Positions 20,131-54,184 of a DNA stretch of 64,000 bases are shown here, piece by piece (within the stretch, counting starts at the first letter, position 1; each line of letters begins with the position of its first letter). The notes beneath the pieces are model-generated. The model saw only the letters and a list, made by a program, of their open reading frames with translations. It was not told the origin of the DNA and made no database searches. Origin of the DNA: Candidatus Poribacteria bacterium (GTDB taxonomy: Bacteria > Poribacteria > WGA-4E > WGA-3G); the NCBI GenBank assembly GCA_965215265.1, contig OZ244048.1, positions 320,001 to 384,000 of the forward strand. Reading direction: 5' to 3'. Both the position numbers and the translations under genes were made by a program.

Positions 20131-21174
20131 TCACTTTCCTAACCCCATCCGATATTTGATGTCGTAGTTGACAATGAAATCTAATTCCTCGTTCGTAAAC
20201 CCATAGTGTTGTGCGAGTACTTGGTCAATTTTATCTATGATGGGCTTGGAATAGCGCGGGAAAAATTCATCATAGATGACGAGGCCTGTTGTTTTGTAAT
20301 AACATTCTTTGCGCTGTGCGTGATTTTTCAGGTCCTGCATCAGTTCGACGGAGAGCTCAGAGAGACGTTGTTTTATTGCCGTGTCCATTTCTGTAATGCC
20401 TATGGGGAAGCTTCTAATTTCACGTACACTCACGACTCTGCAATCCGAGAGAATGATGAACCACCAATAGAAAAGGGAACTGTTCAAAAGTGCGACGACT
20501 GCAGCTGCATCTAATTCCGTTGCTAAGGACAGAGATTTGACACTTGTCGATTTTCGCTCCCCATCTCGTTCATTCCAGAAGTAAGGAATAAAGTTCATTG
20601 CTCTGACCCAATAGCGTGGTGAATTATGGAAGTATATTGTGTGGGAATCTCGCCTCCTCTCAAGATACGTACCTAAAGGTAGGAATTGGGCTAATTTCTC
20701 CCATAGGTTCTGTTCTATTTCATTGTGAAACTTGGGAACTGAATTTTGAAACGACACCTGTGCAACATCGGCATGTTCCATAACGGCAAATAGATGGGAA
20801 CGAGCTTGCTCATGCCATCTATTATAGCGAGACCCGAACAACGTAGGTGTAGGCTTTGCACTGTGCCGAATAATGTAAATCGCCAAGCGTTGATCTGCTC
20901 CAAGGAACAATTTTGCCGGACGAATTCCGTATGTTTGCACCCATCCAGCCCCTTTGGAGCGATGAAATAGAACTTGGAGCGGGGCCATTCTATTTGTGCA
21001 GTAAGCGGAGTGTGGAATTATCATCGATTTCCACCCGCTCTTTTGAAGCAGCTGGAAACTCCTTTCAAACACAAACGCGTAGAGATTACCGCAGCTCTCT
21101 GTCTCATATCTCTTGATGGTGTACTCTTTCTTCACCTTGCTATATTCCACATACGGTGGATTGCCGATAATCAC
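20131..21174 (-). CDS. Eco57I-like (type IIG-type, gamma class) adenine methyltransferase, C-terminal part (NPPY + TRD), frameshifted from 21267..23426
   Basis: Frame is open back to the G9 tract: GNREIIGDAAYQAWLSSHKPFHWFIAFYGILKKGGFDVIIGNPPY. Confidence 0.9.
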   Translation of the reverse strand: MIIGNPPYVEYSKVKKEYTIKRYETESCGNLYAFVFERSFQLLQKSGWKSMIIPHSAYCTNRMAPLQVLFHRSKGAGWVQTYGIRPAKLFLGADQRLAIYIIRHSAKPTPTLFGSRYNRWHEQARSHLFAVMEHADVAQVSFQNSVPKFHNEIEQNLWEKLAQFLPLGTYLERRRDSHTIYFHNSPRYWVRAMNFIPYFWNERDGERKSTSVKSLSLATELDAAAVVALLNSSLFYWWFIILSDCRVVSVREIRSFPIGITEMDTAIKQRLSELSVELMQDLKNHAQRKECYYKTTGLVIYDEFFPRYSKPIIDKIDQVLAQHYGFTNEELDFIVNYDIKYRMGLGK

Positions 21175-21266
21175 ATCGAACCCGCCCTTCTTGAGGATGC
21201 CGTAAAACGCGATGAACCAATGGAACGGCTTATGTGAAGAAAGCCACGCCTGATAAGCAGCGTCAC

Positions 21267-23426
21267 CTATAATTTCTCTATTTCCCCCCCCCTTCCACTA
21301 TACTTTTGTGAAGTCTTCACGCCGTATTCTCCCGCAAGGTACTGATTCAGTTCGGACCCTAACTCCTTCAGTTTACCCTGCAACTTCTGTTTGTCAGCCG
21401 GTTTCACCGTCCCGCCCAATTCGGTTTGCTGCTGGCGAAACAGGGCAAACAGACTTTCAACGTCTTCCACGCGTGCTTGAATCCGCCCCATCGTGTCGTC
21501 AAAGTCGAACTTACCCGTGACTGCACTTTCTACCTCCTCATAAGTCGCATAGCCGACGAGTGTGTTGCCTGCCTGCACGTTAAAGTCTATGTCCGGCAGC
21601 GGTTCAATCTGTTTCACGTTCTCAAGCTGCGCCACCATTTTTAGGAAGAGACGCAGCTTGCAAATTTCGACGGCCTCGTCCATGATGTCTACACCATATA
21701 GGTTGTTGACGATGATGGACTTGAGGATAAAATAGCGGCGGTTTGGGTGCTGCTTAATCCGGTCAAGGAGTTGGCGGAAGTCCGTGTATTTACGGGAATG
21801 TTGCGATGCTTCGTCCAAGAAGGCTTGCATCCGATTTAGGCACGCCTCATAGAGCGGTTCGAGGATATTGAGCGCAGCAAATAAGAAGGCACCGGAGCCG
21901 CACGTCGGATCCAGCACAGTTAGCTGCGTCATCGCCTTCCAAAACGCACGGAGCAGCTCGGGGCCCTCACAACTCTCAATCACGTCTTGCGCGAATTGAC
22001 GAATGTTGAGGTTGTCTGTTATCAGTGCGTTGATGTCCCTGATTTCTCCGTTGGCGAGTTTGGCGCGAACGGTTTCGTAGCGTTGCCGGCGTGCGATGAC
22101 TTCTCGCCACGTTTCCACCGGCAAGGCGTACTCCGCAGGGGCCAACGTGTTCCAGGTTGTCCGTTTGGAGACATCGTCAATGCCAGCAGCGATTTCTGGC
22201 GGTAAATCCAAGTCTACCCCTTTTTTCACTGCATCGTAGAGGTAGCGTTCCGGCACGGCCTGTAGCAGCTGCCACACGGACGTGTCCCCTTCAAATGCGA
22301 TTCTACACGAACGCCGCGCCGCATCAAATAGGAACGGAAGCATCGTATTTTTGCTGATATATTCCGTTATGTCCTCTTTCGTGTAGTATGCACCCATCTG
22401 CTTCTGGTTGATGTACTTTTCAAAGATGTAACCCAGCACATCAGGGTTGATTTCGTTATCGTTTCGCAGCGGGCGCTCGTCTAGATGCCACTGGTAACGT
22501 TCAAAGAAGGTGAAAATCTGTTCAAAAGCCGTGTCGGCAATCTCAATGGTTTCCCCGTGAAGTGTCTCAATCTCGTGTTTCTGAAAGATGCCGCCGTTGA
22601 GGTATGGGATTTTTCCGAGCAAGCGGTGTATCTCTCGGCTGCGTTCCGCTTCCGGTTTCGCAAACCCTTCAAAGAAGAGCGGACAGAGGAAGTGTTTGTA
22701 GTATCTATTGGATGAGGGGGGCGCAGCAGCACTGGCGGCTTGGTTCTCTGCCAGTTTGGTGCGTAGGTAGTTATCGTCGTTATCAAGGAACCCTTTCTTC
22801 TGAATAAAATAGATGAACATCAGCCGGTTGAGCATGACGGAGGCGTACCCACGTTGCATCTCTTCATCGGGAATGCCTTTGAGGAAGTTGAGAAAGGCGG
22901 TGTGTTCCCTCTTGAAATGCTCATAAAACCGTCTGGTGACCTTCTCAACGTCGAAGCCTGCCTGAACGCGTCCAGTCACGTCTGGCAGCGTGAGTTGTTC
23001 TTCCTCCTGCAAACCAAAAGCAAGGGTTTTGAGTTTTTGGATGAGGGAGTCGCCGGATTGTGTTATCTGATACCGATGTTCCCGAGAAGCGGTGGGTTTC
23101 CCTGCCTCATGTTTAACCCACTGCCAGACTTGCGTTTTTCTTTGAGCGTCCGTGTAGATGATAAAGTGTTCATGGACAGATTTTGCGACCTGTTTTTGGA
23201 TTTTGCGGCGTGTTGTGTAATCGGGGATTTGTCCGTCAAGCGATGCGGTGGACTGAAAAACAACCAGGCCGCGTTTTTGGGCGATTGCAGTGAGTTGGTA
23301 GTCGGTTTCATCTACTGTAACGGAGAGCACTTGTGTATGATAATCCCAACCGAGTTCTTCAATAAAGATAGATTCAAATGCGGATGCTCTCAGGTATTGG
23401 CGTATTTCTGGGAGATTGATTTGCAT
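21267..23426 (-). CDS. Eco57I-like adenine methyltransferase, N-terminal part
   Basis: LNRLMFIYF, PYLNGGIF, LGYIFE, GAYYT, VLDPTCGSGAF, LYGVDI, GNTL motifs; stops just after the G9 tract. Confidence 0.9.
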   Translation of the reverse strand: MQINLPEIRQYLRASAFESIFIEELGWDYHTQVLSVTVDETDYQLTAIAQKRGLVVFQSTASLDGQIPDYTTRRKIQKQVAKSVHEHFIIYTDAQRKTQVWQWVKHEAGKPTASREHRYQITQSGDSLIQKLKTLAFGLQEEEQLTLPDVTGRVQAGFDVEKVTRRFYEHFKREHTAFLNFLKGIPDEEMQRGYASVMLNRLMFIYFIQKKGFLDNDDNYLRTKLAENQAASAAAPPSSNRYYKHFLCPLFFEGFAKPEAERSREIHRLLGKIPYLNGGIFQKHEIETLHGETIEIADTAFEQIFTFFERYQWHLDERPLRNDNEINPDVLGYIFEKYINQKQMGAYYTKEDITEYISKNTMLPFLFDAARRSCRIAFEGDTSVWQLLQAVPERYLYDAVKKGVDLDLPPEIAAGIDDVSKRTTWNTLAPAEYALPVETWREVIARRQRYETVRAKLANGEIRDINALITDNLNIRQFAQDVIESCEGPELLRAFWKAMTQLTVLDPTCGSGAFLFAALNILEPLYEACLNRMQAFLDEASQHSRKYTDFRQLLDRIKQHPNRRYFILKSIIVNNLYGVDIMDEAVEICKLRLFLKMVAQLENVKQIEPLPDIDFNVQAGNTLVGYATYEEVESAVTGKFDFDDTMGRIQARVEDVESLFALFRQQQTELGGTVKPADKQKLQGKLKELGSELNQYLAGEYGVKTSQKYSGRGGEIEKL
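21284..21292 (-). repeat. G9 homopolymer (coding strand) at the frameshift
   Basis: C9 on + strand; G10 would give one 1098-aa ORF 23426..20131. Confidence 0.9.
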
Positions 23427-23470
23427 GGGTGTTTTCCTATGAAACCTCTGTGTGGCGAAATAGTAAGCAA

Positions 23471-23499
23471 ATTATACACGATGTCTCAACGGAATTCAA
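23471..23499 (-). promoter_or_regulatory. sigma70-type promoter of the methyltransferase
   Basis: TTGAAT-17 nt-TATAAT about 45 nt above the ATG. Confidence 0.65.
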
Positions 23500-23849
23500 G
23501 ACTTTTAGTACGCGCTGTCTCGAAGCAGTTTGGGGAGCCGCCAGCTGCTGGGAGATTCCTGATTAAATTCTTAATTTTTATCAAAGTGCGCCGAGCCAGG
23601 GTATCCCGTTAATTCTAAGCTTTACTATATTATCGCACATTTCTGCCGCTTGATGGATAACGAATTTCCATTCTGCCAGGGCTATTCGGTTTTTGGCGTT
23701 TTAACTATTTTGGCTGCTACAAGAAAACTGAATGACCTTATAGTGAAAGTATTCCGCGAGTGCACTTTTTTGTGCGCTACCTTATAATGCAACGCAATAT
23801 AACAACATAATTTGGATGAGATTTCTCTGGTTCAGGGAAGGCAGATCGA

Positions 23850-24262
23850 ATGAATATAAAAATAATTTTGACATTGGCTCTGGCGAGCTCGGTTTTACAA
23901 GTGAATCCTTCTCAAAGTCAAGTCGTTAGAGACGGCCTGGTTAACTACTGGAGTTTTGATGCTGCAGATGTTGAAGGCAACACCGTTAAAGACGTTGTGG
24001 GAGGCAATGACGGAACGATTGTAGATGGACCTAAACAGGTTAGAGGCAAATTCGGTGAAGCGTTTGAATTTGCTGGGAAGCCGGACGCGATTGATGTTGG
24101 TTCCCCCACCGATGGTAATCTCGATTTTGGCGATGCCAAAGATTTCTCGATGATGGCATAGATAGGAGTTGGCAAACCGCTAGAATTAGACGGAGAGCCG
24201 TCTAGAATCGTTAGTAAGGGGGATGGGGGTGGCAATGCCAGAATTCTCTGGAAGATTGACAC
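23850..24262 (+). pseudogene. Truncated LamG-like secreted protein
   Basis: Signal peptide, GLVNYWSFD, GKFGEAFEF, TAG at the conserved Trp (FSMMA*I), LamG-like IVSKG...ILWKI continues to about 24262 and is then replaced by the MTase. Confidence 0.85.
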
Positions 24263-25035
24263 AACTTTTGTAGTCTTTCTCGTGCAATTTCGCAGTAATT
24301 TCCATTAATTTCACTACCAAGAAAAATTCTGTGGTTCTTCTCAGCCATTACTGCAACCGTCCCGCTCCCTAAAAATGGATCGTATACCAAATCCCCAGGG
24401 TTGCTCCACGTGATAATATGATCGTTCGCTAATTGCTCGGGGAATATGGCGGGGTGTTTGTGTGCTATTTTATCCGATGCTGAGTGTCCACTGCCGATGA
24501 GATATTCCCAGACGTTCGTGCGTCTACCGTACTCCGCATAGCCCTTTCGCTTCATTCGCAATAAAGAGCCATCACGCAAGCGTTTTGTGCCAATATCGCC
24601 TTTACGTGATTTCTTATTCTTTCGATCTTTGATCAGGTTGATTGTTTTCGGCTGTCCCTTAGAAAACACGAACATATACTCAAATGATTGCCAATAGGTC
24701 TTATTATTGCCGACTGCACCTCTGGGTGGTTTCAAGTAGATCATCGTGTCAAACAAGTTAAATCCGATTTCCTTGAAATAGAGTGCTTGGCGAAATGAGG
24801 TGCCTGACTCGTTCCCTTTTACCGTCTCGTCTCCAATCACCCAAACGACCACTCCGCCCTTTTTAATAATGCGGTACAACTCAACAGCGATCTTTTCAAA
24901 GCCTTCTAACATGTACCCTTCGTACTCACGCATATTGTCATAGGGCGGTGAAGTCACGACAAGGTCAACGAATTCATCGTCCATCAATGCCATCGTGTCT
25001 ATGCAATTTTCATTTTTAATCCGGTTCAATTCCAT
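24211..25035 (-). CDS. Orphan beta-class DNA methyltransferase (N4-cytosine likely)
   Basis: VVTSPPY (motif IV), HPAIFP, VYDPFLGSGT (motif I). Confidence 0.93.
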   Translation of the reverse strand: MELNRIKNENCIDTMALMDDEFVDLVVTSPPYDNMREYEGYMLEGFEKIAVELYRIIKKGGVVVWVIGDETVKGNESGTSFRQALYFKEIGFNLFDTMIYLKPPRGAVGNNKTYWQSFEYMFVFSKGQPKTINLIKDRKNKKSRKGDIGTKRLRDGSLLRMKRKGYAEYGRRTNVWEYLIGSGHSASDKIAHKHPAIFPEQLANDHIITWSNPGDLVYDPFLGSGTVAVMAEKNHRIFLGSEINGNYCEIARERLQKLCQSSREFWHCHPHPPY

Positions 25036-25304
25036 GATACACTTCCTTATAGCAGTCTGTTAGAGACAAGTGATGGAATTTGATTTGAAGTTTCTCTGCG
25101 TTAAATCTTTTACAACTCATAATTTTTTTACGGTATCGTGCCAAATTGTATTTGTCAGGAGCCGCTTCATGCGTACTCAACAAACACTGTTTTTTTTGTA
25201 TACTTCAGTACCATCACCGCTTATGCTTTGCTGGCTCGTGTGTAAATCTCGTGGATTTGGGTGGGCCCAAATCCTCTCTCTGTAATGTTCTAAACATAAG
25301 ATGA

Positions 25305-25376
25305 AAAAAAATAAAGTGATACGTTGCTCCGTTAGCGACCGCACTTCTCACGAAAATTGTGCGGTGGGACAGCAAC
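25305..25376 (-). terminator. Possible intrinsic terminator after the large exported protein
   Basis: GTTGCT...ACCGCAC/GTGCGGT...AGCAAC stem followed on the minus strand by a T-rich run. Confidence 0.4.
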
Positions 25377-25377
25377 T

Positions 25378-28300
25378 CTACTTCCTTAGCAGCATTTTAC
25401 GCGTCGCAGTGAAATCACCTGCCGTGAGCGTGTAGAAATAGACACCACTCGCCACAGGCTCACCCTGTTCATTTTTACCGTCCCAATACACCGCACGACT
25501 CCGGCTCTCATACAGACCCGCCGCCTTATGCCCCAGCGACAATTGCCGAACCACCAGCCCCCGCGCAGAATAGACAGTCAAACTTACATCCGCAGCGTCC
25601 GACAACTGATACGGTATCCACGTCTCTGGGTTGAACGGGTTCGGATAATTCGCCAGCAGCACCGTTTCTTCAGGCAGCAGCGAGGCGAAAAGACTTTGGA
25701 GATTCGCAATCCCTTGTTGGAAAGCGAGTGAGCCATCATTTTCTGCCTGTGCTTGTGTTATCCACGCCCGAACTATCTCTGGAGTTAGTTCCACCCTGTC
25801 TCTCACCCCAGCAAAAGGGGCGGCGGCAGTGGTGGATTCGCCCATGTGTTGTGCCACAAGGATGAGATCTTGGACGTTAATCTTCCCATCGCGATTCACA
25901 TCCGCTTGCGGGTTAGCAGCCGCATCCTCGCCTAAGTAGCGCGCCACCTGAATCATGTCCAGAACGCTCACCTGCCCATCGGCATTCACATCCCAGGTCG
26001 GTTTAGACTCTACAGTAATGGTAAGATTTGGCACACCGGCTGCAATCACCTCACCGGTGCTATCACCAAGTTGGAAGCTAGACAGTGTGAGTTCACTGTC
26101 GCCCGCCCCCCTCGCGGAGAATACCACTGACAGCAATCTCCCGGTGCCGCTCACACCTTTTTCAGAAAGCAACGCAGCGCTGAGCCCCGCAATTTTACCT
26201 GTTGTATTGTCAATCGTGCCTCGCTGGAAGAAGGTCGTCCCACCACCTTTCTTCAGCAAATCCCCCTCGCTGACTTCAACCGCTTCAAGTATCTCAGGGG
26301 AAAATGCTACATCAAATTGCCACCCGGCTAAATCGGTAACCTTTTCTGCACCAATACGAACAGTGAAGGTATCACCAACGCGAACACTCGTTGTGTCTGT
26401 TGAGAGCACGAATCCAGTGCCAGGGTAGACTACGGCATATTCTGCCTCAGGTGCAAACCCAAAGAAGCCGCTCCAATCACCCCATATATTGTCAACAGCC
26501 ACTAATAACATATTTGTACCCTCATTTAGCGTTACAGGGATAATATGCTGATAATTGATAGCAGATGGATCCCAGCCCGGGCCGAACTCCTTGTAAATCA
26601 ACTGCCCGTTGAGCCAGACTTTGACACCATCATCCGCTCCGACAAATATTTTCGTCTGTTGTTCGCGTGGAGAATTCAACAGGATTGAACCGTAGAGAAC
26701 ATAACCAACTGTCTCTTCACCTGTTCCCCAGCCCAGAGCGTTCGTCATGTCGCCGATATTATTTCCTCCTGTGGGTGAAATCTCGTGGATAGTCCATACG
26801 CTATCTGCAACAGTTGCTCCCTCCTTAGCCCCGCGGGTAGCAATCTGTAATTCGGTTACGGCACCGCCACTCGCTTGAGACAGAAAATCTGTTTCTCTAT
26901 TCAGCTCGGGTCCCGGTACCATTGCCCATAACCAGGGACCCACTATTTTCGGGCCGCCTTGCGGGAAACCCGGATTCCTGTACCAGATGATATTTGCATC
27001 GGCGGGTAACCGGTTCAAATGCGAGATGTCTGATATATCATTGTGGCCCAGGTGTACCCATTGCAAATTGTGCAAAGATGCAAGCGGTGAGACATCTGAT
27101 ATATGGTTGCTTTGCAGGTGTAGCCGTCTCAACTTGCGCATGGATGCAAGCGGCGAAATATCTGATATGTCATGATTTTCAAATAACTCCAATTCTTCCA
27201 AATGAATCAATCCTACTAAGGGTGAGATATCTGAGATTCCACTCCGTGCGGCACTTAGTTCTTTCAGACCCACGAGTCCTTTCAAAGGTGCAAGGCTCGG
27301 GCTCTCTGCGTAGAAAAATCTCAGCCTTTCCAAATTTGTTAATCCGGCGAGTGGCGACAGGTCCGATACTGGTGAGTGAGTGAACCATATAGACTTCAGT
27401 TTTGAAAGCCCTGCAAGAGGCGATAAATCAGATACATCGGTATCCCCGAACCGAAGAAACTCTAGGTTGATTAATCCTGCAAGTGGCGACAGGTCTGATA
27501 TTGATTTGCTCGAAAAGGTGAGACGGTGCAATTTTGTTAATCCGGCGAGAGGTGATAGATCCGATATGAACCCCAAATCATCCTCCGACCCCACGTCAAT
27601 AAATAATCTTTCCAAATTTGTTGCAAACTCAATCCCTGTCAATTCTCGGACTTCCCGCACACCAATGTCCACAATCGTTGCCATTTCCTTGACTGTAATC
27701 GGGGTGCCAGGGGCTTTGCCAATTGCTTCTTCAATCACGGCACGCAGGTTTGCGTCAGGGATGTGAACAGTCGCCCCAGGGAGACGTTCTGTCTGAGTCG
27801 CAACAGGCACCGCTACGCTCTCCACAGGGAAATCCAGCGCAAACATCACTTCACTAAAGTGCACCGTCCAAGTGTCCCGTTTCACAGTGCCGTTTTCGCC
27901 CAACAGCGAACCCAATAAGTTTTGCAAACTCGCGTTCTCACGAATCTTTCCCACAAAGGCATCCGTTTCTAACCCAACGGCGGCGGCAGCGTGCGCCGCA
28001 TCCAGCGGCGCTTGGAACGCCTCGTGGAATCGCTGAATCGGCTCAATACCACCGAATACACCACCGGTGTCTTTAAGTGCCGCCCTATAACGCGCGGTAT
28101 CCTCAGCAACTAACTCATCCATCACACCTTTCTCTGTATAGAGACGTAAAGCCTGCGCTCTATTGAAGGGCGGGTTCGCATTCTCCCATACAACCGCACG
28201 CACCTCATCTTCAAGCGGCTTCATCCCTTTTGTATGGCAACCTATGCAGGACAGCCCGTTCCGCACCGTCGGATCGCTCGCCGCAGGATTTGAGACGATG

Positions 28301-29469: not shown

Positions 29470-29705
29470 TTTATGATTTCTCCTTTGGACACGCGAATCC
29501 GTGCAGCTTGTTTTGAGAAAAGAATTCATCCCTGCAAGCAGGGAGAACTTCTTATTGGAATGAGGTCTCACCGTCTCATTTTTCGGACGATGGGACGTTT
29601 TATAGTGAACTCCGTCCTTAATACTTGATAAGTTAACATGATTCCGAGAAAATGTCAAGTTATTTTTAGTTCTTAGCACAATACGAATATTGAACGTTCC
29701 AAGAT

Positions 29706-30653
29706 CTAAACTTCTTGCATTGTAGCCAGTCCAGTCTGCCATTCCTGACCTTTCTTGCCTGCGTAGAGCATGGCGTAGGTACCGCCGATTTCAAAGATCT
29801 GTCCCGTCAAAACCCCGTCGCAATCAAACGCATCCGGGTCTTCCGATGGTGTAAAAACAGGGTTATAAGGGTTGGGTTCAAAGGTTCGGAAATCGCGAGT
29901 GCGCACATGCCCGATGCGCCAGACTTTTCCGTCGTATCCGCCGTAAAGGATGTGGAAGTAGTGTGGTTCTTTGAACAATTCGGTTTCACGAACGGCTTGC
30001 CTGTCCCATGCTTGCCCACTCCCTCTGAAAACAGGATTGGTAGTATTTTTTGTGACCGACGCTGGGTTTTCGGTCGGTGCGGTTGCGTGACACATCGTCA
30101 GGCCGTCCGCGAACGACCGGGTCGCCTTCCCAGTATAAACAATGTGAATCGTGTTGCCTACGACCGCGACAGACGGGTGCGTTGAGCCGTATCGTTCGTG
30201 TTCGGTATCTGCAGGGATAACAGGAGTTCGCTGGACGCGCCGCCACTCGCCGAGGTCTCCATTGCTCACAAGCAAGCCGGTCTGTTCAGGTGTTGTTTTC
30301 CCTTTTCCACGATAGTACATGTAGAATTTACCATCAGCAGGATTTAGGAACGGAAAGGGGTATTCGACGGCTGTACTATCGAAACCATCAACTGAAGGCT
30401 CAAGGATAGGGTTCCGCGAATCCTGAGTAATGTCAGTAGGGGCACTGATGGGAGCTGTCGCGTGCATCATCACCCATCGAACATCAGGCTCGCGTTTACA
30501 CCAGATGTAGTGTAGCGTATCATCAACGATGATAGCATGGGTTGCTGCCGCCCAGCGCGGCGGTGGCAGCGAGATAATTGGATTACCTGTTTCTATTCTC
30601 TTGAAACTGGCAAATACTTCAAATGGGATGGTATCTTTCGGCGGATATGCCAT
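29706..30653 (-). CDS. Five-bladed beta-propeller glycosidase-like protein (GH43/32/130-like)
   Basis: GAGGTG SD before ATG 30653 (MAYPP, 315 aa); repeated NPxxxP...FD and MYY.G blades; ends WQTGLAT. Confidence 0.8.
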   Translation of the reverse strand: MAYPPKDTIPFEVFASFKRIETGNPIISLPPPRWAAATHAIIVDDTLHYIWCKREPDVRWVMMHATAPISAPTDITQDSRNPILEPSVDGFDSTAVEYPFPFLNPADGKFYMYYRGKGKTTPEQTGLLVSNGDLGEWRRVQRTPVIPADTEHERYGSTHPSVAVVGNTIHIVYTGKATRSFADGLTMCHATAPTENPASVTKNTTNPVFRGSGQAWDRQAVRETELFKEPHYFHILYGGYDGKVWRIGHVRTRDFRTFEPNPYNPVFTPSEDPDAFDCDGVLTGQIFEIGGTYAMLYAGKKGQEWQTGLATMQEV

Positions 30654-40679: not shown

Positions 40680-40690
40680 TATATATCTCC

Positions 40691-40766
40691 TATGATAACA
40701 TTTAAGATTGAATTGTCCACTGTTTTATGATAGCATATTTAAGGTTGAATTGTCCACTGTTTTATG
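40691..40766. repeat. Tandem duplication (30-nt core, period 37) upstream of the ferritin-like gene
   Basis: ATTTAAG(A/G)TTGAATTGTCCACTGTTTTATG at 40700-40729 and 40737-40766, one mismatch. Confidence 0.9.
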
Positions 40767-44272: not shown

Positions 44273-44273
44273 A

Positions 44274-45995: not shown

Positions 45996-46062
45996 GGATG
46001 ATATCCATTTTTCGACACACGAGACAATATTTCCTGACTCACCCTAAGGGATTGGGCTCTTT

Positions 46063-47703
46063 TTAGGGATCCTCTTTATATTGTTGAATTTCTACCAAAG
46101 TTTTGTGGAAGTTGCGGTTTTGTGGAGAAATTTTTATCGCAGCACGAATTGCCTTCAACGCATACTGATGCTCTCCTGCTTGGAAATAGGCTAAAGCAAG
46201 CGTTTGAAGATACTGCGGAGCAGGTGCTAAACGGAACGCTTTTTCTGCAAAGGCGATGGCAGTCTCTATCTGGACATTTTTCTGCACGTAAAGTCTCGCC
46301 AGTCCATTGAGTGCATAATGTGCCTCTTCATCCAGCTTTAATGTTGCTTGATAGGCCCGAATTGCCTCGTCAAGCTGGCCGCGGTGATGGTGGATAGCAG
46401 CAATACCGGCCTGTGCTGGAGCTAATGACGGATTAAGTGCGAGCGCATCCGTATAGGCGGTAAATGCCTCATCCAGCCGCCCTTGTTGGTAATAGACAGC
46501 ACCTAAGCCAGCGAGTGGCGCTGCTTGTCCTGGTTCCAGGGTGATTGCCTGGAGATAGGCAGCCTCTGCTGCGTGAAGATTCTCGTTGCGAAAATGCAAT
46601 AAGCCCAATTTGTAATAGGCTGCAGCACGGTAATTCTCACTACCCAGACGCTGATGTTCAAGCAGTGGGCGCTCTACCGTACGTTGATATGCTGCAATGG
46701 CTTCATCAAATTTCGCATACTTTTCGTAGGTTAACCCAAGTTGATAATGTTTTTGCGGGTTGCTCGGTTCAATAACGGTAGCCCGCTCTCGAGTCTCAAT
46801 CTCCTGAGCAATTGCGTTTAAGCGACGGTAAGTTTCCATCGCACGCTGTCCGGCTTTCACCTCTTTCAGCCGGAATAGTGCCTGCGCCAGATTATAGTGT
46901 GCACCGACATGATCAGCTTGTTGTGTGATAACCTGTCGGTATTCTGTCGCTGCGCGTTGAAAATCCCGTTTTTTCATGAGGATTAACCCAAGGCTGTAAC
47001 GAGCAGCGGTGAAATCTGGGTCCAGGCGGACAGCGGCCTCCAAAAACGGAAGTGCCTCGTCAAGTTCGCCCTGCTTTTGATAAATAGCCCCTAAGTTGCC
47101 ATTCGCCATCGGAAGCTCTGGCTGTAGCGCTAACGCTGCTTTGTAATAGTGAATCGCCTTCTCTTTTTCACTAATTGCCTCATAGCAGGAAGCAAGATTC
47201 GTCATCGCTGCCGCAAGATTCGGTGAATGCTTAAGACACTCGTGATATGTCTCAATCGCCTCCACAAATCGGTTCGCTTGCTGATAAGCAGAGGCGAGCC
47301 CGAGCCGTGTCTGTAGCGAATCTGGTTGCAGTTGAATGATATTTTGATAACTGTCAATAGCCTTGTTCACGCGTCCAGTTTTGGCGTAGAGTAACGCAAG
47401 ATTCGCTCTCGCTTGAAAAAGGGTAGGTGCAATCTCCGATGCTCGGTTGAGCGAAATTTCCGCTTCTGCAAAATTTCCAAGTTGGAGATGAACTGTACCT
47501 AATGCAGCATGTGCTTTTGCAAAACGCGCGTCTAATTCAACGGCTTGCTGAAAATTTTGAAGCGCCAATTTGGACTCACCGCGGCGCACTGCTACCATAC
47601 CGCGCGAGTAAAAACCCTCAGCAGTCTCTGCAGAAACGGACACCGCCATATCAATCAGAACGAAACAGAGAAAAATAGCCTGCTGTAACCTTTTTTGCCA
47701 CAT
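46063..47703 (-). CDS. Secreted tetratricopeptide repeat protein
   Basis: Signal peptide, then continuous TPR motifs over about 500 aa. Confidence 0.93.
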   Translation of the reverse strand: MWQKRLQQAIFLCFVLIDMAVSVSAETAEGFYSRGMVAVRRGESKLALQNFQQAVELDARFAKAHAALGTVHLQLGNFAEAEISLNRASEIAPTLFQARANLALLYAKTGRVNKAIDSYQNIIQLQPDSLQTRLGLASAYQQANRFVEAIETYHECLKHSPNLAAAMTNLASCYEAISEKEKAIHYYKAALALQPELPMANGNLGAIYQKQGELDEALPFLEAAVRLDPDFTAARYSLGLILMKKRDFQRAATEYRQVITQQADHVGAHYNLAQALFRLKEVKAGQRAMETYRRLNAIAQEIETRERATVIEPSNPQKHYQLGLTYEKYAKFDEAIAAYQRTVERPLLEHQRLGSENYRAAAYYKLGLLHFRNENLHAAEAAYLQAITLEPGQAAPLAGLGAVYYQQGRLDEAFTAYTDALALNPSLAPAQAGIAAIHHHRGQLDEAIRAYQATLKLDEEAHYALNGLARLYVQKNVQIETAIAFAEKAFRLAPAPQYLQTLALAYFQAGEHQYALKAIRAAIKISPQNRNFHKTLVEIQQYKEDP

Positions 47704-47954
47704 TATGTTGATCCCGAGTATATTGAGTCGCGTGGGATACGATGAAGATGAAAATGATGATGAAATTTTAGCTTAGTCTCTAATCGTGTCGTTATTATAC
47801 ATGTGATTCGTTACATTTGTCAATATTTTCCCTGACATTAAAGCGAAAACCCAACACTTTTCTAGTAAGCATCAAAATTAATTGCTTTCTCGTTCAATTT
47901 CGTGTAAAATTGGAATTTTGGAGGCCATGTAGAAAAAATCAGAATGGAGAAACG

Positions 47955-49880
47955 ATGGAACAAACAAGAGCCAAAGGCGTTACAGGTTTTGAAGCACAGC
48001 GTTCTGAACTAAAAGGAGCTGCAAAGTGGATTTTTGAAATCGGCGCGGTCGGTTTCGTCTTCTTTTATCTCTATAGTGCCGGTTTTGGCAGTGCCGGTGA
48101 ACAGTACCACCTCGGTTTCTATCTGCTGGGGACGTTTGTGCTAATCGGCATACTCTACAAGTTTCGGCCGGAATCCCCTACTACTCGCCCATCTCTATTT
48201 GATATAGGGTTGATTGCACTGAGCGTCGCTTCCATCGGTTATTGGATTGTAGAATACACTGCTTTGGCATATCGTGCCGGGAACTATACCGCGTTGGATA
48301 TCGGGATGGGTGCGCTCGCGCTCGTCATTAGTCTTGAAGCGAGCCGGCGCACCGTCGGCTGGGGGTTACCGGTTATCGCAGCGGTTTGCATCCTCTACGC
48401 GCTCTTTGGCCGCTCTATGCCGGATGCTATTGCACACAAAGGTTTTACACTGTCGCGCATTATCGAGTACTGCTTTTTTAGTCAAGCAGGTATCTTCGGA
48501 ATCATGGCGAATGTGATGGCGACGTATGTGATACTCTTCATTTTCTTCGGTGCGTTCTTAGAGAAATCCGGTGTTGGACAATTTTTTATTAATCTGCCGA
48601 TGTCACTTACGGGAAAATCGATTGGCGGTGCAGCGAAAGTTTCAGTGATTACGTCTGGTTTTTTTGGCTCTGTTGCAGGAAGTGCAATCGCGAACACAGT
48701 AGCGACCGGCGCGTTTACGATACCGTTGATGAAGCGAACCGGCTTCCGCCCACACATCGCAGGGGCAGTTGAGGCATCTGCCTCAGTTGGCGGTCAGTTC
48801 CTACCGCCGGTGATGGGGGCAGGCGCGTTTTTGATGGCAGAACGGACAGGACTCCCCTACAGTCAAATTGCCCTTTTATCTATTGTACCCGCAATACTCT
48901 ATTTCTTATCCGTTTGGGTAATGGTACACTTTGAGGCGAAAAAACAACAGCTAGAAAGCATCCCTGCAGAAGAAATCCCCAAGCTTTTACCGTTGCTCAA
49001 AAACGGGTGGTATTACTTATTGCCATTGCTGACGCTAATAAGTATCCTTATCGCCCGGTATACCGCCTATAAAGCCGCATTTTTCTCGATCCTTGTCACA
49101 ATCGGCGTAAGTTATTTCCGGTCCGACACACGGTTAACACTCAAACGCCTCTGGGAAGCCATGATCATAGGCGGGAAGAATTCGCTCGCCATCGGCGGTG
49201 CTGTCGGTACCATTGGCATCATCGTCGCTGTTATAGACTTAACAGGCTTAGGGCGGATTTTTCCGGAGCTCGTTCTATCTGTCGCAGGTGATAATCGGGC
49301 GATCGCCGTGCTCCTTCTGGCCGCAGCTTCATTAATTTTGGGAATGGGTATTCCGGTCACTGCAGCCTACTTGATTACCTCTGAGCTTGCTGTTCCGATT
49401 CTCATTTCTCCTGAAATGGGTGTCTCTGTCATCGGGGCACATCTGATTATCTTCTGGCTTAGCCAAGATTCTAATATAACGCCGCCTGTTGCTTTAGGTG
49501 CTTATGCCGGTGCCGCTATTGCACGTGCGGATCCATGGAAAACCGGCTGGGCATGCTTTAAGTTCGCCAAACTCTTATACGTTATGCCGCTGCTGTTCGC
49601 CTATACCCATATCTTGTTCGACGGAACGCTCGTTCAAAACACTTTGTCTGTCGTGACAGCTGTTGTCGGAACCGTCATCTTTTCGATGGTAACGATGGGG
49701 TATTTTGTGCAAAAGACAAAATGGTACGAGTGGTGCCTCTTGGCACTTTCTGCGTTCCTCGCGTACATCTATAACATCTGGTCTTTCATGATTGCCGTAG
49801 CCATAGTCACTGTCATCTATTTTGTTCAAAAAAAACGAGAAGTGTCAATCCGCGGCAATGGCGGGAACACAGCGATATAG
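47955..49880 (+). CDS. TRAP transporter 4TM/12TM fusion permease
   Basis: GGAG SD before ATG 47955; GSAIAN, TIPLMKRTG, EASASVGGQFLPPVMGAGAF, ITPPVAL. Confidence 0.94.
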   Translation: MEQTRAKGVTGFEAQRSELKGAAKWIFEIGAVGFVFFYLYSAGFGSAGEQYHLGFYLLGTFVLIGILYKFRPESPTTRPSLFDIGLIALSVASIGYWIVEYTALAYRAGNYTALDIGMGALALVISLEASRRTVGWGLPVIAAVCILYALFGRSMPDAIAHKGFTLSRIIEYCFFSQAGIFGIMANVMATYVILFIFFGAFLEKSGVGQFFINLPMSLTGKSIGGAAKVSVITSGFFGSVAGSAIANTVATGAFTIPLMKRTGFRPHIAGAVEASASVGGQFLPPVMGAGAFLMAERTGLPYSQIALLSIVPAILYFLSVWVMVHFEAKKQQLESIPAEEIPKLLPLLKNGWYYLLPLLTLISILIARYTAYKAAFFSILVTIGVSYFRSDTRLTLKRLWEAMIIGGKNSLAIGGAVGTIGIIVAVIDLTGLGRIFPELVLSVAGDNRAIAVLLLAAASLILGMGIPVTAAYLITSELAVPILISPEMGVSVIGAHLIIFWLSQDSNITPPVALGAYAGAAIARADPWKTGWACFKFAKLLYVMPLLFAYTHILFDGTLVQNTLSVVTAVVGTVIFSMVTMGYFVQKTKWYEWCLLALSAFLAYIYNIWSFMIAVAIVTVIYFVQKKREVSIRGNGGNTAI

Positions 49881-49894
49881 TAAGTTCTCATGGC

Positions 49895-50797
49895 TCATCG
49901 CTCATCGACAATTTCCTGAAGTCGCTGTAAAATATTTTCAGCAGCGAGGCGGGCTGTCCGATCATTAAATTCCTCTACCGCTTTTCCAGCACGATAGGGG
50001 TTTCCTTGATAGTAACGTGCAAAAATATAGGTTGCCCACAAAATAGCATCAATGTAGTGCCCATCTAATATAGCATCAACGGTAACAAATCCGAGTGCCC
50101 CGTTTAGGATAAGTGCATTTAACCCGTCTTGCCAATTTCCAGCGTAGACCTGGCCTGCTCCAGGCAAGATTGCTGATAGCAGCTTTGCCAATTTAACAGA
50201 TTTTCGTGGGGCATTGCGGGCTTGCTCAAAAAGTAACCGAAGCCTTCCGTCGTTAGTGTAGACTTGCAATGCCTCGTGTGCTTCTCCCAACCGAAACTGG
50301 TAAAGGTAAGCGATGCCTTCCAAGAACCGTGCTCGCTGATATAGCGCCGCCGAAGGTTTCCGCATCCTCATTTTTATCAATTCAAGTACGCCAAGATCGT
50401 AATTTCCACTGGCAATTAGTATGACAGCCAGCTCTAATTGTCGTTCCGATTTCTCTACTTCATTCGTAGTGTATTGGAACGCGGTGCGCATCGCAGCAAT
50501 TGCCTCTGGCCACATTCTCTGTGCCCGGTAAGCAAACCCGATGTTGCGGTACGCTTCTCCTACGCTTACATTATCAGGCTGGAAGAAGAGGAAACGTTTA
50601 TACTCAGTGATGGCAGCGTCATAGTTACCCAGGAAAAAAAAATGGTCACCGAGGGCTAAGGGTGTCTCTGCAGCTTTGGGTAAATTCTGCTGTTCTGCGT
50701 TTATACTGAAACAGCAAAACAGCGAAAAGAGTATGAATATGAAGAAGAGAGGGAATACCGGTTGTTTTAAGAGCACCAGGGCACTAGTTTTTCTCAT
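49895..50797 (-). CDS. TPR protein with C-terminal TM2/DUF5683-like hydrophobic domain
   Basis: Signal peptide; AITEYKRFLFF TPR; LSAILPGAGQVYAG; paralog of 54273..55157. Confidence 0.85.
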   Translation of the reverse strand: MRKTSALVLLKQPVFPLFFIFILFSLFCCFSINAEQQNLPKAAETPLALGDHFFFLGNYDAAITEYKRFLFFQPDNVSVGEAYRNIGFAYRAQRMWPEAIAAMRTAFQYTTNEVEKSERQLELAVILIASGNYDLGVLELIKMRMRKPSAALYQRARFLEGIAYLYQFRLGEAHEALQVYTNDGRLRLLFEQARNAPRKSVKLAKLLSAILPGAGQVYAGNWQDGLNALILNGALGFVTVDAILDGHYIDAILWATYIFARYYQGNPYRAGKAVEEFNDRTARLAAENILQRLQEIVDER

Positions 50798-50861
50798 CCC
50801 TTTATGATATATGATTTAGTTTGCTTTCGGCAGTGTTTAAACTGTAGTAAGGATCTGATTC

Positions 50862-51215
50862 TCATCCTAGTGTCTCCGCTTCAGTTAGAGGGTGCCATTC
50901 GCATCGATAAAACTCAAAATCCTCTAGTGTGGGTTCAAGGGTTGCCTTGCTAGCTAGCTCTGTTACTCGTTTCTGTAACTTCACAATTAACATCACATCC
51001 CCGATTTCCAGATCTGCCTGTTCGCGAGACACTGCAATTTCGACATTTGTCAACCCCTTGATTAGGCGAGCCGTTTCGGGATAACCGATATAACTCCGGA
51101 AGTTCGCCGCTGCATCGGCATCCTTCAACATGGTGCAAAATTCAGAACGTGAAATCTGTTTCAGGGTATATTGTCCCTCAGTAGGCATAACAGCGGCATT
51201 AAGTAATAGAATCAT
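50862..51215 (-). CDS. DUF1874 (STIV B116 / YddF / AcrIII-1-Crn2)-like protein
   Basis: 117 aa; LLN...IS..EF...SYIGYPETA.LI..L....I.VSR...L..GD..L..L..R...FEFY pattern. Confidence 0.75.
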   Translation of the reverse strand: MILLLNAAVMPTEGQYTLKQISRSEFCTMLKDADAAANFRSYIGYPETARLIKGLTNVEIAVSREQADLEIGDVMLIVKLQKRVTELASKATLEPTLEDFEFYRCEWHPLTEAETLG

Positions 51216-51264
51216 TTTTTATTAGGTTGAGCGAGCATTATATGCAAATTAGCTTGATAGCTTA

Positions 51265-51293
51265 AGTATACCACAAGTCTGTTGGGATTTCAA
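51265..51293 (-). promoter_or_regulatory. sigma70-type promoter of the DUF1874 gene
   Basis: TTGAAA-17 nt-TATACT with TG extension. Confidence 0.65.
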
Positions 51294-51414
51294 GTTTTTT
51301 TAATTGCCTGGGAATCCAGAGATATAAAGAGCTCTAAATTTCGGCGAACTTTTTTCGCCGCTGCGTGTGTACTTATAATAAATTTATTCCAATCTTTAAT
51401 AGACGCTACAATCG

Positions 51415-52035
51415 ATGGAAACAAATCCAATTTTAAATTCAATGACTTTTATAAAAAAACGGATAAAAACCCTATTTACTGCCCAAGCCTCTAAGCCCGC
51501 ACGGTTAGCCGAGATTAAACTCTCCCGCTTAACACCATTTCAACGTGCGCTGCTCGTTACCGATGGTACCGTAACGCGTTTTATTGAGGCGTACACATTC
51601 TCACCGGTCGAAGTTGTCCTGCTGCACCAAGCACAAGAGACGTTATGTGCTGAGCACGTCTGGCTTGAGCTGCCAACAGACACCCAGATCCTTAAGCGGC
51701 AAGTCGTACTACAGACACCGGCCACGAACAGCCACGCACCAAGAATTCATGCATACGCAGCATCGCAAATTGTCACCGAGCGATTGCCAAAAAGCATTTT
51801 GGATGGATTAGAATCCGGTATTGAAGGTGTCGGGATGCTTTTGAAAAAGAGCATGATAGAAACACGCCGGAACCTTTTATGGTGGGGTGTTGAACACGAT
51901 GTAGATTTGCCTAAGTCCATCCAGCATCTTGAAACAGAACCACTTCTCAGCCGTACCTACAACGTCATTGCAGAGGGGCTGCCTATCATGCTGATCACCG
52001 AAAAATTTCCACTTGATGAACCTGTTCCGGTTTGA
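51415..52035 (+). CDS. Chorismate pyruvate-lyase family protein (DUF98/Rv2949c-like)
   Basis: QRALLVTDGTVT..IEAY, RQVVL, YAAS, SRTY, ITEKFP. Confidence 0.85.
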   Translation: METNPILNSMTFIKKRIKTLFTAQASKPARLAEIKLSRLTPFQRALLVTDGTVTRFIEAYTFSPVEVVLLHQAQETLCAEHVWLELPTDTQILKRQVVLQTPATNSHAPRIHAYAASQIVTERLPKSILDGLESGIEGVGMLLKKSMIETRRNLLWWGVEHDVDLPKSIQHLETEPLLSRTYNVIAEGLPIMLITEKFPLDEPVPV

Positions 52036-52228
52036 TGATGCACCGAAATAACTTGCGGCGATGCGTTAGACATCCGGCATTTTAGCCTGAAGAGCACTGT
52101 GATGGACAAGCGAGATAAAGAGCAGTTCATAAATCGTATAAACGGCTGTGGTTTTTGGATAAATACGCTATAGAGGAAAGCCCATGGATTGGCAAATGGC
52201 AGCTTGGGTTATAATGAACACTGTTCAC

Positions 52229-52277
52229 TCCCGAATAGCATATTTTCCTTGAAAAGTTTTGCTATTTGGGATATCAT
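52229..52277 (+). promoter_or_regulatory. mod promoter embedded in an inverted repeat
   Basis: TTGAAA(52249)-17 nt-TATCAT; arms TCCCGAATAGCA (52229-40) and TGCTATTTGGGA (52260-71). Confidence 0.55.
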
Positions 52278-52337
52278 TAATACTTAAATGATGCTGGAAA
52301 ACAGCTTGAACACCCACTGAAAATAAGGAGATCTCTT

Positions 52338-53486
52338 TTGGCAATACAAACGCAATTCACTACTTCCGAACCCAGCGAATCCGTTGAAAACTATGAATTT
52401 GAACCCATCCAAGGCTACCCGAGGCTCAGCTGGAAAGGAAAGCGCCCGTTCCGCGCTACCCAATACTATCCCGCCCAACTCAAAGAGACACACGGCGAGA
52501 AAGTCAACGACTGGCGAAATAAAATCTATTGGGGGGATAACCTACAAGTCATGAGCCACCTGCTCAAGACATACCGCGGCAAGATGAAACTGATTTACAT
52601 AGATCCGCCGTTTGACTCGAAAGCTGACTATAAGAAAAAAATAGAGCTGAAGGGGAAAAAGGTAGAGAACGACCGCACCGCTTTTGAAGAGAAACAGTAC
52701 ACGGACATCTGGACGAATGATGAATACCTCCAATTCATGTATGAACGGTTGATTCTACTACGCGAATTGCTATCGGATAATGGGTCCATCTACCTGCATT
52801 GTGATTGGCGAATGAATAGTTATCTTAGGTTAGTGTTGGACGAAATTTTTGGCAAGGATAAATTTCGGAATGAGATTATATGGAAGAAATATTCAGGAGT
52901 AAAAAATCAATCTTCCAGAAAATTTACTACGCAGACAGATACAATTTTTTGGTATGTGAAAAGTGAGAGTGCAATTTTTAATCAACAGTACAAACCTTTA
53001 AGTGATAATTATATAAAACAAGAATATAAGTACGTAGATGCAGATGGTAGGAGATATGCAAAATTGAGAGGACGGGGTTATCAAAATAAAAAAGGGGAGA
53101 CAAGCGTAAAATATCTAGATGAAAATCCAGGGATACCAGCTACAAGTCTATGGGATGAAGATGGATTACAGTTAAACACATCTACTTCAGAAAGGATAGG
53201 CTACCCTACCCAAAAGCCTGAAGCACTTCTTGAACGTATCATCAAAGTGTCATCCAATCCCGGAGATCTTGTCTTCGACTGCTTCATGGGCAGCGGCACT
53301 ACGCAAGCGGTTGCGATGAAACTCGGCCGCCGGTTCATCGGCGCTGACATCAACCTCGGCGCCGTCGAGACTACCTCAAAACGCATCATAAATCTCGCAG
53401 CAAACATTGAACAGAACACACGTCAACAGAAAATTGACTTTGAAGCGGAAAAAATCGAAAATACCCCCCCCCTTCTTATGTGTTAA
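52338..53486 (+). CDS. Type III R-M Mod-like adenine methyltransferase, N-terminal catalytic part
   Basis: AAGGAG SD + TTG; GDNL, LIYIDPPF, FRNEIIW, YPTQKPEALLERII, DCFMGSGTT; stops just after the C9 tract. Confidence 0.92.
   Translation: MAIQTQFTTSEPSESVENYEFEPIQGYPRLSWKGKRPFRATQYYPAQLKETHGEKVNDWRNKIYWGDNLQVMSHLLKTYRGKMKLIYIDPPFDSKADYKKKIELKGKKVENDRTAFEEKQYTDIWTNDEYLQFMYERLILLRELLSDNGSIYLHCDWRMNSYLRLVLDEIFGKDKFRNEIIWKKYSGVKNQSSRKFTTQTDTIFWYVKSESAIFNQQYKPLSDNYIKQEYKYVDADGRRYAKLRGRGYQNKKGETSVKYLDENPGIPATSLWDEDGLQLNTSTSERIGYPTQKPEALLERIIKVSSNPGDLVFDCFMGSGTTQAVAMKLGRRFIGADINLGAVETTSKRIINLAANIEQNTRQQKIDFEAEKIENTPPLLMC
53464..53472 (+). repeat. C9 homopolymer at the frameshift
   Basis: C10 would give one 615-aa ORF 52338..54184. 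Confidence 0.9.
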
Positions 53487-54184
53487 GTTCTTATACAGGA
53501 TTTGAGGTGTATAACGTCAATCACTACGACGTATTCCGCAATCCTATTGAGGCAAAAGCACTCCTCATCGAGGCACTGGAAATACAGCCCATGCCTTCCA
53601 GTGCAATATACGACGGCGAAAAAGACGGACACCTCGTCAAAATCATGCCTATCAATCGCATTGCTACTCGCGCTGACATCAACGAACTCATCGCAGGATT
53701 AGATTACAAAACTTTTGAGAAACGCCAAGAACAACACCCTACCCGTCCCGTCGAAAAGTTGTTGCTCGTCTGTATGGGACATGAACCTGACCTCGCCGCC
53801 GCGTTGCAAAGTGAAGTGCCTTACAAACTTGACATAGAAGTGATGGATATCCTGCGTGACAAATCCGGGTTAGCGTTCAAACGCGAATCCGAAGCGAATA
53901 TCGTTCGTAGCAACGGCCAAGTCAGCATAGAGCAGTTCTACCCAATGAACCTGCTCGAGAAGTTAAGTCTGATGAAAGAGCACGTTGAAGACTGGCGTGA
54001 ATTGGTCGAATCGGTGAAAGTTGACTTTAACTACGACGGTGCGGTGCTGAATCCGTCGGTGGTAGATGTGCCGGAAAAAGAGGGGTGGGTCAAAGGGGCT
54101 TACCGCATCCCTAAAGACGCAGGCATAATCCGCGTAAAAATTACCGATCTGTTATCAGAATCTCTCGAAGTGACAGTGGAATGA
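53480..54184 (+). CDS. Type III Mod-like methyltransferase, C-terminal part (frameshifted)
   Basis: GFEVYNVNHY...DWRELVESV..DFNYDG...VKITDLL; frame open back to the C9 tract. Confidence 0.85.
   Translation: MLSSYTGFEVYNVNHYDVFRNPIEAKALLIEALEIQPMPSSAIYDGEKDGHLVKIMPINRIATRADINELIAGLDYKTFEKRQEQHPTRPVEKLLLVCMGHEPDLAAALQSEVPYKLDIEVMDILRDKSGLAFKRESEANIVRSNGQVSIEQFYPMNLLEKLSLMKEHVEDWRELVESVKVDFNYDGAVLNPSVVDVPEKEGWVKGAYRIPKDAGIIRVKITDLLSESLEVTVE

Follow-up and report, generated by a model that had tools for sequence, protein, structure and literature searches.

The genome of a Candidatus Poribacteria bacterium contains two DNA methyltransferase genes that are each broken by a run of nine cytosines, and the question raised by the locus is whether such runs are on/off switches, recoding sites, assembly errors or marks of gene inactivation. 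Both genes lie in a 64,000-b stretch, here called the window (GC content 0.478), that spans positions 320001-384000 of a single contig of 4,833,177 b with a GC content of 0.48. A homopolymer scan of the window found exactly two G/C runs of at least 8 bases, a C9 at 21284-21292 (tract 1) and a C9 at 53464-53472 (tract 2), and the next G/C run by length is a single G7 at 19802. Geometric decay of the genome-wide counts at lengths 5-7 predicts 0.018 G/C runs of at least 9 bases per 64 kb as opposed to the two seen. Both runs are directly 5′ of TTC, and at both junctions the frames are displaced by 2 and rejoin at a tract length of 10 (or 7). An earlier sequence-only reading of the window had proposed a phasevarion of orphan methyltransferases, and the scan bears out its statements that these are the only 9-nucleotide G/C runs in 64 kb, that both read C9-TTC on the plus strand and that both break a frame that one added base repairs. 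Both genes are OFF in the assembly consensus. The parts of the two genes are as follows.

20131..21283, minus strand: 3′ part of gene 1, in the other frame, with the NPPY motif and the target-recognition part (same PADLOC profile as the 5′ part).
21267..23426, minus strand: 5′ part of gene 1, 719 amino acids (aa), with an N-terminal region, DUF7814 and the start of an MmeI/Eco57I-type methyltransferase domain (Pfam, PADLOC).
21284..21292: tract 1, C9 on the plus strand and G9 in the sense of the gene, in frame at 10 (or 7).
52338..53486, plus strand: 5′ part of gene 2, 382 aa, with a complete N6_N4 methyltransferase domain (PF01555, E = 7.1e-55; PADLOC).
53464..53472: tract 2, C9, in the linker that joins the methyltransferase and C-terminal domains of gene 2, in frame at 10 (or 7).
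53480..54184, plus strand: 3′ part of gene 2, 234 aa, a C-terminal domain without a known family.

Gene 1 reads as one restriction-modification fusion gene that is split within its methyltransferase domain. The 719-aa open reading frame (ORF) aligns with positions 1-721 of the 1100-position PADLOC profile PDLC03628, a Type IIG restriction enzyme-methyltransferase (E = 8.7e-239), and a 347-aa ORF downstream aligns with positions 752-1095 of the same profile (E = 9.9e-85). The downstream frame is open from 5 b before tract 1, and its first listed start codon is at 21174 (ORF 20131-21174). Pfam recognized DUF7814, MmeI_Mtase and Eco57I in the gene. The break falls between positions 25 and 78 of the Eco57I profile and separates the S-adenosylmethionine (AdoMet)-binding region from the NPPY motif, which is read just downstream as IIGNPPY. 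The profile match fits the Type IIG layout of an N-terminal nuclease region, a gamma-class N6-adenine methyltransferase with NPPY and a recognition domain. Because two ORFs cover one Type IIG profile, gene 1 is not the orphan that it had been taken for. The count of three methyltransferases with no endonuclease beside them holds for separate endonuclease genes and fails for gene 1, which has a full-length endonuclease-methyltransferase profile; likewise, the placement of both runs in linkers of methyltransferases is right for tract 2 and wrong for tract 1, which is inside the methyltransferase domain. No unambiguous D...EXK of a PD-(D/E)XK motif could be placed by eye in the first 150 residues of gene 1, and there was no sequence match in the PDB.

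Gene 2 is, to judge by its domains and neighbors, a Type III-like mod gene without an adjacent res gene. Its 5′ part matches positions 65-361 of the 616-position PADLOC profile PDLC03633 (MTase_III; E = 1.6e-67) and terminates at a TAA within the heptamer GTTAAGT. Pfam and PADLOC profile searches found no family for the 234-aa C-terminal domain, and searches of PDB sequences and a protein atlas gave chance-level or unnamed matches only, the atlas matches including one cluster at 0.90 that has PF01555 on 13% of its members. The nearest relatives of the domain, with 74% identity and from another genus, belong to continuous frames of 603 and 598 aa with the methyltransferase domain at the start. 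Their junction (...EDNTEGIPTIYTGF...) has no tract, and the window mod at C10 would read ...ENTPPPSYVLSSYTGF... at the same place; tract 2 is therefore in a true linker. The 234-aa domain is probably the DNA-recognition part. The window mod is flanked by a chorismate lyase-like gene and a TPR gene, with no res gene adjoining it. A ResIII plus TnsA-like gene of 915 aa immediately follows its paralog at genome position 467605.

The two window tracts belong to a genome-wide surplus. G/C runs of 5, 6 and 7 bases number 3152, 500 and 66, and those of 8, 9, 10 and 11 bases number 44, 46, 4 and 6, giving 100 runs of 8-11 bases in the 4.83-Mb genome compared with the ~10 expected from the decay of lengths 5-7. 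Both bases contribute: C runs of 7, 8, 9 and 10 occur 36, 20, 27 and 1 times and G runs of 7, 8, 9, 10 and 11 occur 30, 24, 19, 3 and 6 times. Counts of A/T runs fall by 0.31-0.33 with each base between lengths 5 and 7, the next step, to 8, being 0.47 and the one to 9 being 0.17, with a small bump at 8. Matches to PF01555 (65) and PF07669 (27) merged into 88 methyltransferase loci. A PF01555 or PF07669 match was within 2 kb of 47 of the 100 tracts, with 8.0 expected for a zone that covers 8% of the genome (binomial 3e-25, a value inflated by paralogs), and 45 of the 88 loci carry a tract. The same zone holds 91 of 666 G/C runs of 6-7 (13.7%) and 8 of 123 A/T runs of at least 9 (6.5%). The predicted enrichment of long G/C runs in methyltransferase genes is thus present, and the two window tracts are not a coincidence. 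Assignment to families from the flanks, by eye, put 42 of the 100 tracts in methyltransferase or specificity genes, and Pfam analysis of 49 representative loci showed that at least 16 different N6_N4, Eco57I-type or HsdS families have a tract. Tracts aside, 88 N6_N4/Eco57I-type loci in 4.83 Mb is an unusually large repertoire.

Long G/C runs break reading frames and shorter runs and A/T runs seldom do. Split ORFs were found at 18 of 44 G/C8 and 27 of 46 G/C9 runs; none of the 66 G/C7 runs has one, and among 123 A/T runs of at least 9 only 2 do. A single PADLOC profile in each case crosses the break in the Type IIG gene of the window and at loci L037, L039 and L010, and relatives hold uninterrupted frames of ~600-670 aa at such genes. 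A search for res genes elsewhere in the genome found a ResIII-domain gene beside the tract-bearing mod at 8 examined loci (L001, L010, L022, L023, L035, L038, L045 and L049). None was found within 4.5 kb of L037, L039 or L040, and the 10-copy L039 mod family is without res in the 9-kb loci examined. Because many tract-bearing mods are beside ResIII-domain genes, the system is therefore a switchable restriction-modification repertoire at least as much as a set of regulators. At L010 (genome 65044-74044), a Type III mod of 387+706 aa broken at a G9 is accompanied by a res gene and adjoined by a YhgA-like transposase gene. The unit recurs at ~627 kb with identical flanks, where a further C9 run is found at a distance of 2151 b, and a third copy of the mod junction is at ~2.12 Mb with flanks 98% identical; L010 may be a mobile restriction-modification unit.

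The explanation favored here, with a probability of about 0.6, is that the tracts are slipped-strand contingency loci that switch a large restriction-modification and methylome repertoire. The C9 runs of the window would be part of the ~90 surplus G/C tracts of 8-11 b across the genome. Slipped-strand mispairing in replication would add or remove one base, and the change would bring the part of the gene beyond the tract into frame or put it out of frame, a frame relation that can be read directly from the DNA. Almost every methyltransferase tract would be ON at 10, and the 8 or 9 of the assembly would be OFF. The OFF product of gene 1, cut between the AdoMet-binding region and NPPY, would have neither catalysis nor DNA recognition, and gene 2 would be cut between its methyltransferase domain and its C-terminal domain. 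Promoter-proximal tracts would switch defense and surface genes too. Each cell would likely express a few restriction-modification specificities and surface proteins, drawn at random, the outcome being bet-hedging against phage and perhaps in host recognition, and differing methylomes would be a by-product, gene-regulatory or not. On its face the genome reveals a very large, apparently switchable restriction-modification and surface repertoire. The labels "orphan" and "phasevarion" exceed the evidence, the second implying by definition that methylation alters the expression of genes.

Half of the tracts share a flanking block, represented in the window by one exact copy and one weak match.

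53482..53488, plus strand: GTTAAGT, conserved block 3′ of tract 2, translated as Leu-Ser (TTA AGT) when the gene is ON and giving the TAA stop of the C9 frame.
21308..21314, plus strand: GTGAAGT, 15 b 3′ of tract 1, one mismatch to GTTAAGT; weak, and may be chance.

GTTAAG is found no more than 18 b downstream of a C-oriented run at 50 of the 100 runs of at least 8, at 0.2-0.3% of runs of 4-5 and at 0 of 500 runs of 6. From 44 instances, with paralogs removed and relatives added, the consensus is Y-A-Y-A-T-n-Y-G-TTAAG-T-A-T-T/A, with G at -1 in 43 of 44 and T after TTAAG in 42 of 44. TTA often stands just before the run. Genes that carry the block are unrelated, and it occurs in both orientations. 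When a gene runs along the C strand, the in-frame block is TTA AGT, Leu-Ser, in the setting ...PPP-x3-5-LS..., and when a gene runs along the G strand it is CTT AAC, Leu-Asn, in the setting ...LN-x2-4-GGG-V.... The upstream frame stops at the TAA inside the block at C9 and at a TAA directly after the run at G8. In one Type III mod family (L037), the LN and GG belong to a conserved ELNK...DGG peptide after motif I, for which tract-less orthologues use other codons. An origin of the G-orientation motif as a by-product of the ELNK...GG peptide was rejected; it fits the L037 family, and the other G-oriented families have the motif in unrelated contexts.

Of 18 further genomes in the family, 10 contain the pattern C8-N4-17-GTTAAGT, covering 5 of 6 genera. 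It was not found in one genus (0 of 6 genomes), whose mod orthologues are tract-less, or in genomes from the other families of the order (0 of 12), and a reversed control pattern gave 0 everywhere. A search of a 185,579-species collection with TTTA-C8-N4-17-GTTAAGTA returned 57 matches, 40 of them in 13 Poribacteria records and 17 scattered. Those 13 records are titled Candidatus or uncultured Poribacteria, in keeping with the earlier suggestion of a probable sponge symbiont. The block is a genuine, lineage-specific feature that is all but confined to Poribacteria. No hairpin beside the tract was evident among 76 dereplicated 3′ flanks (median z +0.3; 21% at -2 kcal or lower), and the orientation of tract and motif showed no replication-strand bias in a genome whose GC skew is not bipartite. 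Two origins of the block were tried and rejected. Copy-paste of the spacer within the genome was not evident once paralogs were strictly removed (3.76 of 8 matches within vs 3.45 between genomes, permutation p = 0.095), and a sigma-70-type promoter with the tract as its spacer would require spacings of ~14 to 24, with no single geometry by eye.

The ratio of nonsynonymous to synonymous substitution (dN/dS) was calculated with our own NG86 script among the paralogs of 6 families, with 5 of 7 and 6 of 10 members used in the two largest. The downstream halves gave dN/dS of 0.09-0.44 at dS of 0.1-0.9 and the upstream halves 0.15-0.39, apart from 0.73 for one 55-codon piece. The values for the two window families were 0.15 (upstream) and 0.17 (downstream) for the Type IIG genes and 0.39 (upstream) and 0.09 (downstream) for the mods. 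The low dN/dS of the out-of-frame halves implies that they are translated over evolutionary time. In all copies the downstream frames continue without a stop, the longest for 984 aa, and the tract is retained across paralogs with dS up to 0.9 and across genera. These results show that the split genes are not decaying pseudogenes and that both halves are under purifying selection. That the tracts instead mark knocked-out, decaying methyltransferase and restriction genes is suggested by the 40 of 42 methyltransferase tracts that are not in frame (39 split, 1 ambiguous), but the long open downstream frames, the low dN/dS and the retention of the tract make this explanation highly improbable.

Tract length differs at the DNA level among paralogs and orthologues. 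Of 30 paralog pairs whose flanks are at least 90% identical, 11 are unequal in tract length, and in one pair with 300 of 300 flanking bases identical the tract is 9 in one member and 8 in the other. At L030 the gene is split (1145+63 aa) by a G9, whereas the orthologue from the same genus (L065) has a G10 and is in frame. Two fragmented, multi-contig metagenome-assembled genomes (MAGs) contain 12 tracts with long frames on both sides, of which 5 are in frame, four at 10 and one at 8. The in-frame share is 2 of 42 here versus 5 of 12 in those MAGs (Fisher 0.004), and tracts of at least 10 make up 10 of 100 here versus 7 of 23 there (Fisher 0.018).

Several observations weigh against free switching by slippage. 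Only 2 of the 42 methyltransferase tracts in this assembly are in frame, a G8 at 1362474 and a C11 at 4693743. Free drift would leave ~1/3 in frame, and the probability of 2 or fewer among 42 is 1e-5. Of the others, 39 are split and 1 is ambiguous, and 38 of the 39 split tracts need exactly 10 and read 8, 9 or, once, 11. Repeat copies that are fully identical have kept a common length of 9. A strain ~5% diverged, represented by a contig of a different study (X1), also has 9 with 0 gaps at tract 1, its platform being unrecorded, and no length difference at that tract was found among the 12 of 19 indel rows listed for contigs of three studies (X1, X3 and X7). MutS, MutS2 and MutL are intact, and switching need not match the speed seen in Campylobacter and Helicobacter. 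Simple slippage, finally, has no need of a conserved block. To our knowledge, Campylobacter and Helicobacter are without this mismatch repair. Raw Illumina Hi-C reads (X8) covered 5 of 30 bins, had a depth above 1 only at a repeat at 25.5-26.2 kb and did not reach tract 1, and a search of metagenome contigs for the junction of the 7-copy Type IIG family with a variable run returned 0 matches. The rarity of in-frame tracts could mean that OFF is favored or is the mutational mode, that G/C runs are under-called, or that 8 and 9 are working states.

Under-calling would make the splits a consensus artefact, in which the true tracts are 10, the genes are intact and a long-read assembly, or a majority call on a mixed population, under-reports the length. 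The artefact would account for the need of all but one of the split methyltransferase tracts for 10, and for the higher shares of in-frame tracts and of tracts of at least 10 in the two fragmented MAGs. It is nevertheless judged unlikely. A/T runs of at least 9 split ORFs in 2 of 123 cases only and G/C7 in 0 of 66; a C9, a C10 and a C11 are read in frame within ORFs of 780, 1424 and 737 aa, and such lengths are thus callable; and the contig from the other strain and study also has 9 at tract 1, whatever its platform. Even if the artefact were real, ~90 hypermutable 10-mers concentrated in restriction-modification genes would remain contingency loci, as the sequence-only reading had argued for its two 9-mers.

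If 8 and 9 were instead the working states, programmed recoding would supply the full-length enzyme at a set low level, through RNA-polymerase slippage or through a ribosomal frameshift, which for a 9 would be -1 on G GGG GGG and for an 8 would be +1 at GGG-TAA. Programmed recoding would account for the position of 38 of the 39 split methyltransferase tracts 1 or 2 bases under the in-frame length (one, at 11, is above it), for the length of 9 common to identical repeats and the diverged strain, and for the purifying selection on both halves. The G orientation, in which the run is followed by TAA or TAG and the G8 upstream frame stops just past a Shine-Dalgarno-like G run, points the same way. 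The +1 site of prfB resembles such a stop after a Shine-Dalgarno-like run. Like the slippage and frameshift sites of dnaX, insertion sequence elements and prfB, the tracts are homopolymers at the junction of two selected frames, with a stop after the run in G orientation. Unlike at those sites, the DNA length varies among paralogs and orthologues here, and in-frame alleles exist. Known slippage sites are mostly A/T runs. The in-frame 10-mers that relatives have at orthologous or comparable loci (L065, L056, L107, L144 and L148) and the 8 versus 9 of paralogs with identical flanks, by which the DNA itself varies, argue against recoding. There is also no conserved stimulatory hairpin, and an element that is the same in both gene orientations suits a DNA-level function better than a signal in mRNA. 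Recoding is accordingly rated a quite unlikely account of the tracts.

A variant of the slippage explanation takes the block into account. TTA-C(8-12)-(0-9 b)-YAYATnY-GTTAAGT-AT would be a portable, lineage-specific contingency cassette, that is, a programmed system atop slippage. This is a tentative proposal and is considered doubtful overall; it is made because the same arrangement recurs, in either orientation, across genes and upstream regions that are unrelated, always with ON at 10 and with Leu-Ser encoded in one orientation and Leu-Asn in the other, and almost only in Poribacteria. If it is correct, a trans-acting factor (a DNA-binding protein, nickase or methyltransferase reading GTTAAGT) would set or tune tract length. 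Alternatively, the overlapping NTG-TTAA start and stop at 9 would yield two coupled polypeptides, for example with methylation on and restriction off.

Tracts are also found outside methyltransferase genes. In a 13-member family of leucine-rich repeat (LRR) proteins, internalin-like and lipoprotein-like, the tract is a few codons past the start, in the signal peptide, with 6 tracts in frame and 7 out of frame. The LRR genes L002 and L003 and 11 paralogs (e.g., genome 4031912 and 2278266) share an identical leader, from the ribosome-binding site (RBS) onward RBS-ATG-AAG-AGA-AGA-ATG-CA-C(8-9), which is followed by GTTAAGT. A ComEC/Rec2 DNA-uptake channel gene (L042, genome 3229028) is split into 147+726 aa by a C8, has an ATTAAGT block and would be in frame at 9; this tract is a possible on/off switch of natural competence. 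Further tracts are upstream of defense-like genes (DUF4007, DUF499 with HEPN, and SNF2 with ResIII) and of cohesin/dockerin or sulfatase-maturase genes. A nine-copy, non-coding-looking element, GTTAAG-ACGATTGA-C(8-11)-TAACTTCACGT..GTTAAC (L012 and eight similar sites, e.g., genome 1693316, 766585 and 4152748), is a candidate phase-variable promoter region; at L012 it precedes a dockerin/sulfatase-maturase gene and the gene of a small secretion-tail protein.

The window contains a third methyltransferase gene.

24211..25035, minus strand: gene 3, an intact, tract-less N6_N4 DNA methyltransferase of 274 aa (PF01555, E = 2.2e-39).

Gene 3 matches the PADLOC profile PDLC03714 (oMTase) over its full length (4e-92) and contains no G/C run of at least 7. 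On these profile matches, it is the only one of the three window methyltransferases assigned to an orphan family. Two segments near it are replaced in the diverged strain (X1). Window positions 20190-21070, within the portion of gene 1 that serves target recognition, are swapped for 828 unrelated letters between aligning flanks, which suggests allelic exchange of specificity domains, and positions 23518-24267, between the Type IIG gene and the orphan methyltransferase, are replaced by 799 unrelated letters. At 25601-25647, reads and contigs of four runs pile up (depth 1632 in X7) and continue into many different sequences. This segment is the C-terminal FlgD_ig/secretion-tail part of a 1454-aa LRR-cohesin-dockerin protein and evidently a module common to many genes.

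Phase-variable methyltransferases are known mainly from small-genome, host-adapted pathogens, with few per genome. The present genes resemble the phasevarion mods of Haemophilus, Neisseria, Helicobacter and Moraxella in having a simple repeat inside the ORF of an N6-adenine beta-class methyltransferase gene, in an ON or OFF state set by the frame, and in the lack of res at some copies (the window copy and the L039 family). They differ in their occurrence in an uncultured sponge symbiont with intact MutS and MutL, in the number of mods beside res and in the flanking block. No flanking consensus is known to us for the tracts of Campylobacter. A survey of Type III mod genes gives 662 of 3805 as repeat-switched, environmental species included, with up to 4 independent phasevarions per genome (PMC5909438), in contrast to ~45 tract-bearing methyltransferase loci here. 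For Campylobacter jejuni, a survey puts the median number of poly-G/C tracts in a genome at 20 and counts restriction-modification genes among nine homology groups (PMC6321876), compared with 100 runs of at least 8 here. In both organisms, G/C homopolymers of 8-11 are within ORFs and near promoters and have surface and restriction-modification targets. Unlike in C. jejuni, nearly half of the tracts here are in DNA methyltransferase genes, and nearly all are ON at 10 and read OFF. The Type IIG enzyme Cj0031 of C. jejuni is phase-variable through a G tract (PMC4889913), as gene 1 would be. Literature searches, going by the titles and opening abstract lines of the papers listed, found no phase-variable homopolymer system described for Poribacteria, in agreement with the sequence-only reading, although the supplementary tables of the surveys may list poribacterial entries. 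The kind of system is already known; the phylum, the scale, the uniform ON length of 10 and the flanking block were not found described.

The flanking block is a handle for locating such loci in further genomes and may point to a factor that controls slippage. A mismatch-repair-proficient symbiont appears to run dozens of restriction-modification specificities, an LRR surface family and a DNA-uptake channel on one type of switch. If the tracts vary in situ, MAG annotation would miscount "frameshifted" defense genes as pseudogenes. The methylome and the restriction barrier would also differ from cell to cell, which bears on the survival of phage attack in dense sponge microbiomes and on gene flow among symbionts.

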